DNA of 50,971 nucleotides, taken from sequence record NC_049823.1; one strand, 5' to 3'. Position numbers and translations under genes: made by a program. This DNA comes from Escherichia phage herni. Each line of letters starts with the position of its first letter. Position 1 is the first letter of the stretch. Below, in pieces: positions 28,755 through 34,771 of this stretch. The notes beneath the pieces were generated by a model, which saw nothing but the letters and a program-made list of their open reading frames with translations, searched no databases and was not told the origin of the DNA.

Positions 28755-30035
28755 ATGAGTAAATCACGAATCGTTAAGGCTGACGGCTATAACGAGATCT
28801 TTAAAGGCGAGAATTGCAAATCGCGAGTAGAGCAACCATTCTACATGCAATCAATGCCATACAAGACACTTGCTGACTTTTACGAAAAAGATGGCCTGGC
28901 AAAAAGGATTATTGACGTAGTACCAGAGGAAATGGTTTCCCCTGGCTTTACTGTTGACGGCGTGGCAGACGAGGCGGCATTCCGTTCTTTGTGGGATGAG
29001 AAGCGATTGAATGCAAAAATCATTGATGCGCTTTGCTGGTCGCGTTTGTTTGGCGGATCTGCAATCATTGCTCTTGTTCAGGATGGGCGAGCGCTCAAAT
29101 CACCTGTAAAGCCTGGAGCTATTCTGGAAGATGTGCGCGTTTATGATCGTTATCAGATTCGCGTTGAAGCGCGCGAAACTAATCCCCGCAAGGTTCGCTA
29201 TGGTGAGCCAGTGCTTTACACTGTAACGCCAGGCGGAGACTTGCCGGAATACCAGGTACACTACACGCGAGTTTGCATTATCGATGGTGAGCGGATACCT
29301 AACGCAAAACGACGCAGCAATGATGGATGGGGTGAGTCAGTTCTTAACAAGCGACTTATTGAGGCTATTGTTGATTATAACTATTGTGAAACATTAGCGA
29401 CGCAATTATTGCGAAGAAAACAACAGGCAGTATGGAAAGTTAAAGGTCTTGCGGACTTGTGTGATGATGAGGAAGGTGTTAGCGCGGCACGCCTGAGACT
29501 TGCGCAGGTTGACGACGAGGGCGGCGTAGGCAAGTCCATTGGTATTGATGCTGAGGATGAGGAATATGATGTTCTTAACTCTGACATTAGCGGCGTTGAT
29601 TCTTTTCTGGAAAAGAAAATGGATCGCATAGTTTCCCTTTCAGGTATTCATGAAATCATCCTGAAAAATAAAAACGTTGGCGGCGTTAGCGCAAGCCAAA
29701 ACACGGCGCTTGAAACATTCTATAAGCTGATTGAAAGAAAACGCGTTGAGGATTACAAGCCTATCCTTGAATTTCTATTGCCGTTCATCATTAGTGAACA
29801 GGAGTGGAGCATTGAGTTTTCACCTTTGAGCGTACCTAGCGATAAAGATCAGGCTGAAATTCTGAATAAGAATATCGACTCAATCAGCAAGGCTATTGAT
29901 GGTCAGTTCCTTGATGTTGAAGAGGCGCGCGACACGTTGCGAGCAATCGCCCCAAGCGTTAAACTAAAGGACACTAATAAAATCAAGCTGCCGGAGCCAA
30001 CTGAGCCGGAGCCAGGCACACAGGGGAATGAGTAA
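28755..30035 (+). CDS. portal protein
   Basis: 426 aa directly downstream of the terminase; GGAGGAAA Shine-Dalgarno; acidic C-terminus. Confidence 0.75.
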   Translation: MSKSRIVKADGYNEIFKGENCKSRVEQPFYMQSMPYKTLADFYEKDGLAKRIIDVVPEEMVSPGFTVDGVADEAAFRSLWDEKRLNAKIIDALCWSRLFGGSAIIALVQDGRALKSPVKPGAILEDVRVYDRYQIRVEARETNPRKVRYGEPVLYTVTPGGDLPEYQVHYTRVCIIDGERIPNAKRRSNDGWGESVLNKRLIEAIVDYNYCETLATQLLRRKQQAVWKVKGLADLCDDEEGVSAARLRLAQVDDEGGVGKSIGIDAEDEEYDVLNSDISGVDSFLEKKMDRIVSLSGIHEIILKNKNVGGVSASQNTALETFYKLIERKRVEDYKPILEFLLPFIISEQEWSIEFSPLSVPSDKDQAEILNKNIDSISKAIDGQFLDVEEARDTLRAIAPSVKLKDTNKIKLPEPTEPEPGTQGNE

Positions 30036-30799
30036 TGAAAGTGAAGGGCGTCGTTAAACAATGGCGCTTTCCTGAAGCAAGCGAGCGGCAATTTAGCCGC
30101 TCAATTCAGGAGGCAATTAGAGATCTTGTGGTTCTCATGCGCAAGCGAACAAAAGCGATGAAGTTTGACGCAACAGATAATGAGATCAACAGCGCAGAAG
30201 ATGAAATTAACAGCCTGGCAACTGACCTTATAGCTGGCATTGTTTCCACTCTTCCTGCAATCGCGTTGACCATTTATAAATTCAATGCGAAGCAGTTTAT
30301 CAATGTTGCCAAGTCAACTGGCGGAAAGGATAACACGGCGGTAATTGTTTTGATCGCGATTGGCGCTAACGCTAACGAGGAGTGGTATCAGACGCTTTAC
30401 GGTCAATGGCACGGCCTTACAGAATCATCGCTAAGGAAGCTATTCACAAATATTGTGTCTGACTGGTCAACAAACATTCGCAATGCAAACTTTCGCGGAA
30501 GCAATGATAAACAGGTTAATGATCTTGCAGAAAAGAGATTTGCTGTTTATAGCTCTTGGGGTAAAACTAGATCAGAAAACATTATCGGCGCGTGGAATAG
30601 TCGCCTGATGCGCCAGCGCCTTTATGATGCTAAGGTGACTCATTATTTCTGGCATGGGATGTTAGATGATAGAGAGCGATTGCAGCATGTATTATGGGAA
30701 GGTAAAAGAATAGCGCTTGATGCAATTCATGATTTCCCTGGTGAGCCGTGGGGTTGCCGTTGCTGGGCGATTCCAGATTGGAATAATAAAGGAGAGTAA
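30035..30799 (+). CDS. head morphogenesis (minor head) protein
   Basis: 254 aa, coupled to the portal stop; assignment is positional. Confidence 0.45.
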   Translation: MKVKGVVKQWRFPEASERQFSRSIQEAIRDLVVLMRKRTKAMKFDATDNEINSAEDEINSLATDLIAGIVSTLPAIALTIYKFNAKQFINVAKSTGGKDNTAVIVLIAIGANANEEWYQTLYGQWHGLTESSLRKLFTNIVSDWSTNIRNANFRGSNDKQVNDLAEKRFAVYSSWGKTRSENIIGAWNSRLMRQRLYDAKVTHYFWHGMLDDRERLQHVLWEGKRIALDAIHDFPGEPWGCRCWAIPDWNNKGE

Positions 30800-30802
30800 T
30801 TA

Positions 30803-31915
30803 ATGAAGGCAAAACAAAGATTTGATAGCGTCCAGGTTAAGGCGCATTTTGATGATAATGGATTTTTAGTGGATCGCCCAATTGTGGCGCGAATTGGTTT
30901 GCAGGAGTACCGCACACCGTATGGAATCAGACGAGAGTTCCGACCAGCGTCAGAGGTATTTAAGGCTGATTCGCTTGCTACGTTCGCAGGCAAGCCGATC
31001 ACTATCGGTCACGTCACAGTGACTCCAGATAATGCGGATCAGGTTGTTGTTGGTTCATGCGCTGGCGCTGGTGTTCCAAATGGGATTGGCGTTGAAGTTC
31101 CGTTAAGCATTTACTCAAAGCGAGCAATTGAGAGCGCAAAAAAGAAAGACACAGCGGAAATTTCAGTTGGTTACACATCGGTTGATATTGACAAGCCAGG
31201 CTGGGGTAATAATAAAACCGGTGATTACTTGTTTGAGGAAGACCTAAAGGAAGACTGGAAGCCTGATTCTCCTGATTGGGTTAAATTTGACGCCATTCAG
31301 ACGAATATCCGTGTTAATCACATTGCACTTGTCTTTCGTGGTCGTGCTGGCATTGCCAAATTAAATCTTGATAGTGAACAGGATTTTCCGTATAGTGACG
31401 AGGTTCTAAATGACAAAGGAGATGAGGAAATGACAGTAAAAATCAAACTTGATGGCGCGGTAGAATTTGATGTTCCAAAGGCCGTTGCTGATCATATTGA
31501 GGCGTTAAAGGCAGATGCAAAAGCTGCAACCGAAAAAGCTGATGGCCTTGAGGCCGAGCGCGACGCCCTGAAAACTAAAGTCGATGGCATTCCGGCGCAG
31601 ATTGCAGAAGCTGTTAAGAAGGCAAAGACTGACGCAGAAGAACATGCCAAGCTGGTTGCAGATGCAACAGAAATTGGCATCAAGTGTGACGGCTTGGACG
31701 CTAAAGCGATCAAGGTTGCTTACGTCAAGGAAGTCACTGGCGCTGATATTTCAGAAAAAGCCGATGCATATATTGAAACAGCTTTTGACCTTGCGAAGCA
31801 GTCTGATAAAATGGCGGCGCAGCGTAAATCTGTTAAGGGCGATTCTTTCGAATCTGGCAAGAGTGAAAAAACCGACTCCCTTGATCCGACTGCGCGTTTG
31901 AAAAAACTTAAATAA
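30803..31915 (+). CDS. prohead protease or scaffold protein (coiled-coil C-terminus)
   Basis: 370 aa; C-terminal Ala/Lys/Glu-rich coiled coil (AVADHIEALKADAKAATEKADGLEAERDALKTK) typical of scaffolds; position before the capsid gene. Confidence 0.5.
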   Translation: MKAKQRFDSVQVKAHFDDNGFLVDRPIVARIGLQEYRTPYGIRREFRPASEVFKADSLATFAGKPITIGHVTVTPDNADQVVVGSCAGAGVPNGIGVEVPLSIYSKRAIESAKKKDTAEISVGYTSVDIDKPGWGNNKTGDYLFEEDLKEDWKPDSPDWVKFDAIQTNIRVNHIALVFRGRAGIAKLNLDSEQDFPYSDEVLNDKGDEEMTVKIKLDGAVEFDVPKAVADHIEALKADAKAATEKADGLEAERDALKTKVDGIPAQIAEAVKKAKTDAEEHAKLVADATEIGIKCDGLDAKAIKVAYVKEVTGADISEKADAYIETAFDLAKQSDKMAAQRKSVKGDSFESGKSEKTDSLDPTARLKKLK

Positions 31916-31927
31916 GGAGAAATAAAC

Positions 31928-32440
31928 ATGGCTACAATTGGAGCAAGTTATTTTGCTGTAATGTCTCGTGCGTTACCTGGTCAGGTTTCTGACACTTCAG
32001 CTTATAATATTGATGGCGCTTGTGTTCTTGAGAATGCGGAAGGCAACCAGAACAAAAACATTTTTGTTGGTGTTGCAATCCAGCATGGCGGCGTTGATGC
32101 TATGGGCAATAAGCTAATTAAGCCGATGGCGGCAAGCGGCAAGGCTTACGGTGTTGCAATTCGATCCCACTTCCAGACGACTTCTGCTGACGGTCGAATG
32201 ATTTATGAATCTGGCGGCGGAATCAACGTAATGACTGAAGGGCGTGTTTGGATGTTGGCTAAAGACGCCACCGCGCCAGCGTTCGGCACTACAATCAAAC
32301 TGTCTGAGGATGGTCAGGTTGATACCGCGTCTGGCACTATCGAAACCAACTGGATCGCGACTGGTGATTTCACCGAGTTTCAAGGCTTGAAGCTGGTAGA
32401 GGTTCAGGTGCAAAAAGTTCCGGCAGTTTCAGCAGGTTAA
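31928..32440 (+). CDS. head-associated structural protein (paralogue 1)
   Basis: 170 aa; shares a pattern with the gene at 32486 (G..VW.L......G....DG....G....W..TG); AAGGAGA Shine-Dalgarno. Confidence 0.45.
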   Translation: MATIGASYFAVMSRALPGQVSDTSAYNIDGACVLENAEGNQNKNIFVGVAIQHGGVDAMGNKLIKPMAASGKAYGVAIRSHFQTTSADGRMIYESGGGINVMTEGRVWMLAKDATAPAFGTTIKLSEDGQVDTASGTIETNWIATGDFTEFQGLKLVEVQVQKVPAVSAG

Positions 32441-32447
32441 TAAATAT

Positions 32448-32471
32448 GGCGCTCACTGAGCGCCTTTTTTA
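32448..32471 (+). terminator. rho-independent terminator
   Basis: GGCGCT-cactg-AGCGCC followed by TTTTTTAT. Confidence 0.65.
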
Positions 32472-32485
32472 TATTTGGGGTTATC

Positions 32486-32920
32486 ATGAGTGATTATTCA
32501 GTCATTGTTGGCGCTGAGTCGCCAGGGTGCATGGTCGATTCTTCAATAATGGTGATTAACGGATCTTTCGTGTGCGGAGATGAATTTATTGCGCCAGGTA
32601 AGATTGTTCGACTATCACATATAACAAATGGATACAAAATAGCCAGTATTAATGGGGATCTTGTTATTGGCGTGGCAGTAAGGCCGCTGGACTCGTGCAT
32701 ATATGAGGATGGTGATCCAGTTAGTGTTGTTAGTCGAGGTATTGTGTGGTGCTTAACTTCTGAGAGCGAAGCGCCAGAATATGGAGATAAAGTATTTGTA
32801 ACGCAAGATGGAGATGCGGCATACAGTGAAGGCGACTTACTGAGCGGTTGGATCTTTACTGGCGAACATGTAAAGATTGATCATGATTCATATATTGTCG
32901 GGGTAAGCATTGACTCATAA
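32486..32920 (+). CDS. head-associated structural protein (paralogue 2)
   Basis: 144 aa; similarity to the gene at 31928. Confidence 0.45.
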   Translation: MSDYSVIVGAESPGCMVDSSIMVINGSFVCGDEFIAPGKIVRLSHITNGYKIASINGDLVIGVAVRPLDSCIYEDGDPVSVVSRGIVWCLTSESEAPEYGDKVFVTQDGDAAYSEGDLLSGWIFTGEHVKIDHDSYIVGVSIDS

Positions 32921-32939
32921 CACAAAATTATGTTGCACG

Positions 32940-32957
32940 TTTAACAAAAAATGCTAT
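32940..32957 (-). promoter_or_regulatory. conserved intergenic motif in inverted orientation relative to the downstream capsid gene
   Basis: TTTAACAAAAAATGCTAT on the plus strand. Confidence 0.35.
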
Positions 32958-33003
32958 CATTGGTCCGTTACATACTAACGACCTTTATATATGGAGGAAG
33001 AAA

Positions 33004-33978
33004 ATGGAAAAAGAAAAATTTGATCAGCTAGATGCGGATATTGTTTCTAGCTATCTGGCTACTCGCGGCGTTAAAGGTGATGCGTCCGATATGGGTATCT
33101 GGACGGCGCAAGAGCTTCACAAGATCCGCTCAACTGCTTACGAGAAAGAGTATCCGGCAGGTTCTGCGCTTCGTGTGTTCCCTGTAACTAATGAGCTTTC
33201 TGATACTGATAAAACTTTTGAATACCAGATGTTTGATAAGGTTGGTTACGCAAAAATTATTGCTGATTACACCGATGACCTGCCGACCGTTGACGCGCTG
33301 ATGTCCAGCGAATTTGGTAAAGTGTTCCGCTTGGGTAACGCGTTCTTGATCTCCATTGACGAAATCAAGGCTGGTCAGCGCACTGGCAAGAGCCTTTCCA
33401 CTCGCAAGGCAAACGCAGCGCAAAACGCTCATGATCAGGAAGTTAACCGCCTGGTGTTTAAGGGTTCAAAGCCGCATAAGATTCTTTCAGTGTTTGAACA
33501 CCCTAATCTGACAAAGATCGTGTCAACTGGCTGGTTAAGTGCTGATGAAAACACTAAGTTCCCGCAGGCAGCATCTGATGAACTGGAAAAGGCTATTGAA
33601 ACCATTCAGACCATCACCAATGGTCAGCACCGCGCAACCAATATCCTGATTCCGCCGTCTATGCGCAAGGTTCTTTCCGTTCGAATGGAAAACACCACTG
33701 AAAGTTATCTGGAATACTTCCAGAAACAAAACAGCGGAATCACCATCGACTCAATCGCAGAGCTTGAGGATATTGATGGCACTGGAACGAAAGGTTGTCT
33801 GGTATATGAGAAAGACCCAATGAATATGTCTATCGAAATTCCAGAAGCATTTAACATGCTTCCGGCGCAACCAAAAGATCTGCATTTCAAAGTTCCGTGC
33901 ACTTCAAAATGTACTGGCCTGACGATTTACCGTCCGTTTACGCTAGTGCTTATTACTGGCTTGAAAAAATCAAGTTAA
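33004..33978 (+). CDS. major capsid protein
   Basis: 324 aa; strong GGAGGAAG Shine-Dalgarno; flanked by strong terminators; position in the head module. Confidence 0.65.
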   Translation: MEKEKFDQLDADIVSSYLATRGVKGDASDMGIWTAQELHKIRSTAYEKEYPAGSALRVFPVTNELSDTDKTFEYQMFDKVGYAKIIADYTDDLPTVDALMSSEFGKVFRLGNAFLISIDEIKAGQRTGKSLSTRKANAAQNAHDQEVNRLVFKGSKPHKILSVFEHPNLTKIVSTGWLSADENTKFPQAASDELEKAIETIQTITNGQHRATNILIPPSMRKVLSVRMENTTESYLEYFQKQNSGITIDSIAELEDIDGTGTKGCLVYEKDPMNMSIEIPEAFNMLPAQPKDLHFKVPCTSKCTGLTIYRPFTLVLITGLKKSS

Positions 33979-33990
33979 TCGTATAACATT

Positions 33991-34020
33991 GGGGAATCCT
34001 TAACTGGATTCCCTTTTTTA
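33991..34020 (+). terminator. rho-independent terminator
   Basis: GGGGAATCC-ttaact-GGATTCCC followed by TTTTTTATT. Confidence 0.65.
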
Positions 34021-34034
34021 TTGGAGGTTATGAA

Positions 34035-34307
34035 ATGGCTAAAGAAAAAACTGTAACGCTAAAGGTTTCCGGCGTGTGTCTTATCATTGTTGATGGTGAG
34101 CATTATCATCCAGGCAAAGAGTTTGACGTAGAAGAATCAAAATTGAAAACAAGCGCGTTTGAATATCTAATTGCAAAAGGCGATCTGGAGGTTAAAGATA
34201 ACTCCGCATTGAACGAAGAAATCAAACAGAGCGCAGCAAGCAAACGTAAAAAAGACCCGCGAGAGGGCAAGAGCAAAGCCGAACTTGAAGACGGCGGCAT
34301 CTATTAA
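34035..34307 (+). CDS. hypothetical structural protein (90 aa)
   Basis: ORF track; GGAGG Shine-Dalgarno. Confidence 0.5.
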
Positions 34308-34313
34308 TAAAGA

Positions 34314-34336
34314 GGGCGCTTATAGCGCCCTTTGTC
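34314..34336 (+). terminator. putative terminator
   Basis: GGGCGCT-tat-AGCGCCC followed by TTTGT. Confidence 0.4.
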
Positions 34337-34354
34337 ATATCTGGAGGAAACACA

Positions 34355-34771
34355 ATGGTTGATGAATTTTTCACTGACGCAGAAATCACGCAGCAAATCG
34401 TGAAATTAGCGCCACCGATGAAGCAGATTGATCCAGATTTAATGGTGGCATGGATTGAGCTTGCAAAGGAATTTGTTTGCAAGAAGCGGTTTAAAGAATC
34501 ATATCCAAAAGCGGTTGCTCTTTATACGTTGCACCTTATGACGCTTGACGGAGCTATGAAGCAAGAAGGGGAAAGCGTAGAGAGTTACTCAAGGCGCGTG
34601 GCGTCATTTTCCCTGACTGGTGAATTTAGCCAGACTTTTGATCGAGTGTCAGGCGACTCTGACGGAAAAGAGATTAGACAAACTCCCTGGGGGAAAATGT
34701 ACGAAACGCTAAATCGTAAGAAAGGCGGTGGATTTGGCCTTGTGACTGGATTTCGGAGGAGTTGCAAATGA
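34355..34771 (+). CDS. head-tail connector or adaptor protein (putative)
   Basis: 138 aa; positional. Confidence 0.4.

Follow-up and report, generated by a model that had tools for sequence, protein, structure and literature searches.

The head gene locus of Escherichia phage herni

We analysed a stretch of 50,971 nucleotides from Escherichia phage herni (NC_049823.1), hereafter the window, which represents a T1-like siphophage (Drexlerviridae, Tempevirinae, genus Hanrivervirus). The region of about 5 kb around the two genes studied here is 96-98% identical to that of other Hanrivervirus phages, which are phages of Escherichia, Shigella and Salmonella (e.g. PGN590, grams, slyngel, pSf-1 and KarlJaspers). 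Two open reading frames, ORF1 and ORF2, lie in tandem on the plus strand, as an earlier note on this DNA had described (Table 1). They are part of a head module in which the genes follow each other in the order portal, Mu-F-like head morphogenesis protein, DUF2213 protease/scaffold, ORF1, ORF2, major capsid protein, DUF7444 and DUF4054, the last of which encodes the head-tail adaptor. The position of the cement genes between the protease/scaffold and the capsid gene is the same in those related loci that cover the complete module (about 60 of 64). The herni capsid protein matches the PDB chains 9kmg_A and 9kzj_A at E~1e-157.

Table 1. Genes and predicted signals in the head module of the window
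Feature	Position	Strand	Remarks
Mu-F-like head morphogenesis protein	30035-30799		
DUF2213 prohead protease/scaffold	30803-31915		
Shine-Dalgarno AAGGAG of ORF1, strong	31914-31919	+	predicted anti-SD pairing -9.3 kcal/mol
ORF1 (cem1), major capsid cement protein, 170 aa	31928-32440	+	counterpart of T1 gp49 / FCWL1 gp28
Predicted intrinsic terminator GGCGCTC-ACT-GAGCGCC + T6	32448-32470	+	hairpin and T run; conserved position
Shine-Dalgarno GGGG of ORF2, weak	32477-32480	+	predicted anti-SD pairing -5.4 kcal/mol
ORF2 (cem2), minor cement paralogue, 144 aa	32486-32920	+	T1 gp48 / FCWL1 gp29 type, without Big_2
Promoter-like motif TTGCAC-N16-(TGc)TATCAT upstream of capsid gene	32933-32960	+	conserved in related loci
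Major capsid protein gene (HK97 fold); product is bound by the cement proteins	33004-33978	+	PF09950 8e-54, phrog_264
Predicted terminator after capsid gene	33991-34020	+	9-bp stem and T run; -15.5 kcal/mol, z = -2.65

ORF1 and ORF2 are paralogous cement proteins

The two proteins had been proposed to be paralogues on account of a common residue pattern. BLASTP indeed aligned ORF1 with ORF2 over the C-terminal 61 residues (31% identity, E=5e-12), and the pattern VW.L...G...DG...G...W..TG lies inside this alignment. The G(V/I)(A/V)(I/V) motif reads GVAI in ORF1 and GVAV in ORF2. Furthermore, both proteins belong to the same two Pfam families, for each of which the gathering cut-off is 27. ORF1 scored 90.2 bits with PF22758 (Phage_cement; 1.7e-25) and 64.2 bits with PF23982 (XM1_gp53), while ORF2 scored 52.8 bits (6e-14) and 86.6 bits (2e-24) with these families, respectively. 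Phrog_1989 is also common to both, with ORF1 matching at 1.3e-53.

ORF1 aligned end to end with the 158-aa cement chain of PDB entries 9kmg, 9kmh and 9kzj (E=3.5e-45). ORF2 matched the same chain at E=2e-10, and in addition a 255-aa chain named 'decoration protein gp29 / BIG2 domain-containing protein', within the first 145 residues of the latter (E from 5e-9 to 1e-8). By tblastn and the phage records, the 158-aa chain was identified as T1 gp49 / FCWL1 gp28 and the 255-aa chain as T1 gp48 / FCWL1 gp29. An AlphaFold2 model of ORF2 (pLDDT 84, pTM 0.81) was compared to known structures with Foldseek and gave TM scores of 0.76-0.79 to the T1 and FCWL1 chains, with 0.79 for 9kmh_ak and 9kzj_H. Weaker matches were cement proteins of Pam3 (8hdt_G), XM1 (7kmx_a), Borrelia phage BB1, HFTV1 and TW1. 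The beta-tulip cement fold is thus predicted for both proteins, for ORF2 by its model and for ORF1 by alignment to a solved chain. Pfam membership, the matches to the solved T1/FCWL1 cement chains and the predicted structure of ORF2 all agree with the decoration or cementing role that had been suggested from the sequence. The Sf11 decoration protein was considered as a counterpart and discarded, as it is TW1-like and comes from an unrelated siphophage.

ORF2 ends at residue 144, and a Pfam search found no Big_2 match in it at E<=0.1. Its N-terminus is of the gp48 type, being four residues shorter than that of gp49, and the protein P0023, which is 52% identical to ORF2, has a gp48-like C-terminal extension. 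Based on these features and on its placement in the cem2 clade (see below), ORF2 is a gp48-type paralogue without the Ig domain.

The cement pair is widespread and probably old

Sixty-one related IMG/VR loci were annotated by family HMM. The arrangement protease-cem1-cem2-capsid was found in 39 complete IMG/VR loci, in the window and in three GenBank relatives. One cement gene only was present in 17 complete loci, two of which were checked and turned out to be a Klebsiella Webervirus and a relative of a Pantoea phage. In a neighbour-joining tree of the cement domains, cem1, cem2 and the single-copy proteins form separate clades, which points to one old tandem duplication as the origin of the pair. 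ORF1 falls into the cem1 clade and ORF2 into the cem2 clade, which is monophyletic and has the longer branches.

Compared to T1, the capsid protein is 76% identical, cem1 54% and cem2 36%. Within the genus, dN/dS was 0.16 for cem1 and 0.23 for cem2, as compared to 0.07 and 0.035 for the capsid protein and the protease, respectively, which indicates that both cement genes are under purifying selection.

The cem2 proteins come in two size forms, a short one of 143-173 aa without an extra domain and a long one of 254-273 aa with a Big_2-like C-terminus. About half of the surveyed cem2 genes have no Big_2, and since short and long forms are interleaved in the tree, the Ig domain seems to have been gained or lost repeatedly. 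Database relatives of the gp48 type with 337-338 aa carry either Big_2 only (P0053) or Big_2 together with PF25354 (P0080 and P0085). Judging by their domain content, the minor cement paralogue faces outward with a variable module of zero, one or two domains.

A predicted terminator is conserved in position between the two cement genes

The terminator that had been claimed to follow ORF1 was found in the spacer between the two genes. Its stem is formed by positions 32448-32454 and 32458-32464 around the loop ACT, followed by TTTTTT at 32465-32470. The stem has 7 bp, six of which are G-C pairs, and begins 8 nt past the ORF1 TAA. The predicted fold energy is -16.5 kcal/mol (z = -2.2 vs shuffles). 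A terminator is annotated at the same place in the records of the close relative G29-2 and of curated T1. We infer that termination occurs at this hairpin in vivo, on a stem that is short at 7 bp. An Rfam search over positions 31500-34500 gave no RNA family at E<=1.

A terminator-like G+C-rich hairpin with a T run was present in all 26 distinct cem1-cem2 spacers, which together contain 12 distinct inner 6-bp stems; among shuffled spacers only 2.1% yielded a terminator-like site. The spacers have too little sequence in common for MAFFT to bring the hairpins into register, and the alignment was replaced by presence-versus-shuffle and loop-anchored counts. In the loop-anchored register 125 of 126 cells pair, with 3-5 pair types per position, a count that is circular, as the hairpins had been pre-selected for pairing, and that serves as a description. 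Of the 13 distinct spacers from single-copy lineages, 12 likewise have the terminator past the cement gene. These comparisons indicate that the position of the predicted terminator is kept through complete turnover of its sequence.

Ribosome-binding sites, promoters and other hairpins

The AAGGAG of cem1 is retained in nearly all related loci, and the capsid gene has the same predicted anti-SD pairing as ORF1 (-9.3 kcal/mol). The Shine-Dalgarno sequence of cem2 is weaker than that of cem1 in 19 of the 26 distinct lineage triples and not weaker in the other 7.

A promoter-like motif (TTGACx or TTGCAC, 16 nt, TGcTATCAT or TATTAT) was found upstream of the capsid gene in every Drexlerviridae locus examined, whether it has one cement gene or two. 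The T1 record has an annotated promoter at the equivalent place, and the capsid gene probably has its own, putative, promoter. The cem2 gene is thereby located between the terminator and the next promoter-like motif.

Past ORF2, a hairpin at 32962-32983 was considered as a second terminator. It is bulged and weak (-6.6 kcal/mol), no better than shuffles, and we do not claim it as such; its counterpart in T1, a strong hairpin with a T run, bears a terminator annotation. A hairpin that begins about 2-6 nt past the -10 element could be a stem-loop at the 5′ end of the mRNA and not a terminator. The terminator after the capsid gene was found in nearly all surveyed loci. Another hairpin (34311-34331, -16.6 kcal/mol) with a poor T run follows the small DUF7444 gene. 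Together, the hairpins after the capsid and DUF7444 genes suggest that nearly all highly expressed genes of the head module are followed by a hairpin, in agreement with the annotation of T1 and G29-2.

A promoter candidate for ORF1 (TTGACC-N16-TG-n-TAAAAT, 31785-31812) lies 115 nt upstream of ORF1, within the 3′-terminal part of the protease gene, and matches the sigma-70 consensus at 10 of 12 positions. We did not retain it, because it overlaps the conserved coding motif FDLAK..SDKMA (FDxAK..SD(K/I)M) and its conservation is inseparable from protein constraint. T1 keeps a promoter-like signal (TTGATG ... TATTAT) at this place, although the protein differs.

In the single-copy loci of the Webervirus and Pantoea type (L047-L062), the spacer that separates the cement gene from the stop codon of the protease contains a conserved hairpin, e.g. 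GCGGCC-TTCG-GGCCGC, which is G+C-rich and lacks a T run. Such a protease-cement spacer is absent from the two-paralogue lineages. The hairpin could be a processing or stabilising element.

The cement proteins in the heads of T1 and FCWL1

In the cryo-EM structure of T1, the T=7 head contains 415 copies of the capsid protein, on which 80 gp49 homotrimers and 60 gp48:gp49 1:2 heterotrimers are found, i.e. 360 gp49 and 60 gp48 at a ratio of 6:1 (PMC11945409). Both proteins have the beta-tulip fold. The N-terminus of gp49 extends to the inner capsid surface, while gp48 is located outside only and has a protruding Ig-like C-terminus (PMC11945409). Figure 2A of that paper depicts a hexon and a penton with six trimers around, two of them heterotrimeric (PMC11945409). 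As 12 vertices with five sites each give 60, we take the heterotrimers to be vertex-adjacent, which is our own reading and not that of the paper.

The FCWL1 head structure is reportedly that of Cai et al. 2025 (Structure 33:663). In the PDB, FCWL1 gp29 has five chains, all of them in 9KMH, the portal-vertex composite. The 37 chains of the FCWL1 capsid protein can be accounted for as 7 + 30, and the 43 chains of the 158-aa cement protein as 7 (9kmg) + 30 (9kmh) + 6 (9kzj). The T1 entry 9KZJ has one gp48 chain per icosahedral asymmetric unit. Read from the chain counts alone, this suggests that the FCWL1 depositors modelled gp29 around the portal vertex only, and because of these counts the minor paralogue may be present at about 5 rather than about 60 copies per virion. 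At either copy number, by analogy, the second paralogue would be a minor, vertex-associated subunit. The near-identical phages T1 and FCWL1 have apparently been modelled differently with respect to the Ig-bearing paralogue. The KanT1 paper makes no mention of these cement proteins.

Herni shares with T1 and FCWL1 the family Drexlerviridae, the order protease-cement 1-terminator-cement 2-capsid gene, the Pfam families and the beta-tulip fold. The identity between ORF1 and T1 gp49 is about 52-54%, and ORF2 belongs to the gp48 clade. However, gp48 has 255 aa and a Big_2/Ig-like C-terminus, whereas ORF2 has 144 aa and none, and their cement domains are only about 32-36% identical. In T1 the gene of the abundant cement protein, gp49, lies upstream of the terminator, which is the same direction of unequal expression as the earlier note had predicted for the two herni genes.

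A model for the unequal dosage of ORF1 and ORF2

Taken together, we think it likely that ORF1 and ORF2 are an old tandem pair of cement genes, in which ORF1 encodes an abundant subunit and ORF2 a scarce gp48-type subunit that is limited by the terminator and the weak Shine-Dalgarno sequence. By analogy to T1 gp49, ORF1 would occupy the threefold and quasi-threefold sites of a T=7 head as a trimer and clamp adjacent capsomers. ORF2, the faster-evolving paralogue without the outward Ig-like (Big_2) domain, would take the place of one ORF1 in those trimers that adjoin a fivefold vertex, resulting in 1:2 heterotrimers as in T1. The terminator would stop most transcripts past ORF1, and ORF2 would be translated only from read-through RNA via its weaker ribosome-binding site. 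The location of the gene between the terminator and the next promoter-like motif and its weaker Shine-Dalgarno sequence would be in line with a low output of ORF2, and a level that is a fraction of that of ORF1 would fit the 6:1 ratio of T1. The proposed copy number of ORF2, the formation of heterotrimers and the vertex position are carried over from T1, to which cem2 is only about 36% identical.

Alternatively, differences in translation initiation or in the stability of the mRNA might account for most of the unequal dosage, and the hairpin would then be chiefly a 3′ stabiliser of the ORF1 message at which few transcripts end. The difference in Shine-Dalgarno pairing (-5.4 for ORF2 vs -9.3 kcal/mol for ORF1) and the stem of only 7 bp would fit this possibility. 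Moreover, past ORF2 there is no strong terminator here, so that read-through RNA would run into the capsid gene. On the other hand, hairpin and T run are kept in every one of the 26 distinct spacers. A T run is required for termination and not for 3′ protection, and the terminator is still there in the 7 of 26 lineage triples where the cem2 Shine-Dalgarno sequence is as strong as that of cem1 or stronger. We give a dominant role of translation or stability very little credence. It is just as improbable, in our view, that ORF2 is a decaying or functionless duplicate, with ORF1 as the sole virion protein and a terminator that merely ends the ORF1 transcription unit. ORF2 does evolve faster than its neighbours, as its lower identity to T1 illustrates, it has the lowest GC3 among the four genes and a weak Shine-Dalgarno sequence, and the Ig domain of T1 is lost. 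Yet it is intact in every surveyed two-paralogue locus, it has 14 invariant columns over 39 diverse family members and a confident predicted fold, and its T1 homologue is a resolved virion component (PMC11945409). As its dN/dS within the genus is 0.23, ORF2 does not appear to be decaying.

The chain counts of FCWL1 bear on where the ORF2 product would be located. It could be a portal-proximal adaptor that occupies only five trimer positions round the portal vertex, at about five copies per virion, and not a general peripentonal subunit. This would be in line with the five gp29 chains in a single entry, 9kmh, and with the tally of 43 chains for the 158-aa protein, and the terminator together with the weak Shine-Dalgarno sequence could yield a very low level. 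However, the chain counts are indirect, and T1 gp48 was assigned in an icosahedrally averaged map, with one copy per asymmetric unit and 60 heterotrimers (PMC11945409). Because an occupancy of 5 in 60 would be invisible in such a map, we consider a location at the portal vertex only unlikely for the ORF2 product. With slightly less than even confidence, we further propose that the conserved role of cem2 is geometric. It would break the symmetry of those trimers that are in contact with a fivefold vertex, be it penton or portal, at a dosage of 1:6 or lower that would be hard-wired by the location of the gene between a terminator and the next promoter, and would represent a phage counterpart of the herpesvirus 1:2 triplex. 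About half of the gp48-type proteins are Ig-less and nevertheless appear to be under purifying selection, and the job of the minor paralogue would then not be adhesion, which has been suggested for T1.

Comparison to other capsid systems

Single-copy proteins of PF22758/PF23982, such as gp24 of the Pseudomonas phage E217, gp6 of the cyanophage Pam3 and gp53 of the Vibrio phage XM1, have the same family and fold as ORF1 and ORF2. In Webervirus and Pantoea phages the single cement gene is followed by a terminator and then by a promoter-like motif before the capsid gene, as is the case here. The phages with one gene presumably form only homotrimers, whereas herni has a duplicated and differentiated pair.

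Accessory proteins outside an HK97-fold capsid are also known from T4 (Soc and Hoc) and lambda (gpD), like the cement proteins. T4 Soc and Hoc are mutually unrelated and not tandem paralogues. T1 gp48 can be compared to a gpD-like clamp joined to a Hoc-like Ig domain, the latter being absent from herni ORF2.

The cement protein fold has been called analogous to that of the herpesvirus triplex proteins (PMC11945409). The triplex (Tri1 + 2 x Tri2) is likewise a 1:2 heterotrimer of related capsid clamps at local threefold positions. To our knowledge, it has no detectable sequence relation to the cement proteins and is a heterotrimer at every site, and our analogy draws on this established knowledge.

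Significance and annotation of the gene pair

The protein family, the fold and the capsid architecture with two paralogues were already known (published in 2025), and the terminator is annotated in the G29-2 and T1 records. The gain is therefore incremental and consists of an Ig-less, strongly diverged minor paralogue, of a duplication that appears old and widespread, and of the conserved position of the predicted terminator. The duplicated cement pair with its internal terminator is no peculiarity of T1, being conserved in many T1-like phages and apparently old. That the Ig domain is optional argues for a core role of the minor paralogue that is structural rather than adhesive, and an Ig-less cem2 offers a clean test of its contribution to capsid stability. 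T1-like phages are noted for their environmental persistence (PMC13164509), which makes capsid stability relevant.

In most Hanrivervirus records ORF2 is called hypothetical or is misnamed, and a function can now be assigned to it. The labels 'scaffolding protein', 'zonula occludens toxin' and 'major capsid protein' given to ORF2 in records of relatives are ruled out by Pfam and structure. Misleading names of ORF1 and ORF2 homologues occur in PP988008 (L065), MN850567, OK272487, MK778457 and others. An Ig-less ORF2 homologue is labelled 'BIG2 domain-containing protein', and 'major capsid protein' is applied to three different genes. Further labels in relatives are 'putative zonula occludens toxin', 'putative scaffolding protein' and 'major head subunit precursor'.

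The T1-like head module was also matched by 19 unannotated records of 'Campylobacter phage' (host C. jejuni), including MG065640, MG065657, MG065663 and MG065673. In one of these phages, A119, the ORF2 protein is 90.2% identical to that of herni. These matches are probably due to contaminating coliphage or to a wrongly assigned host.
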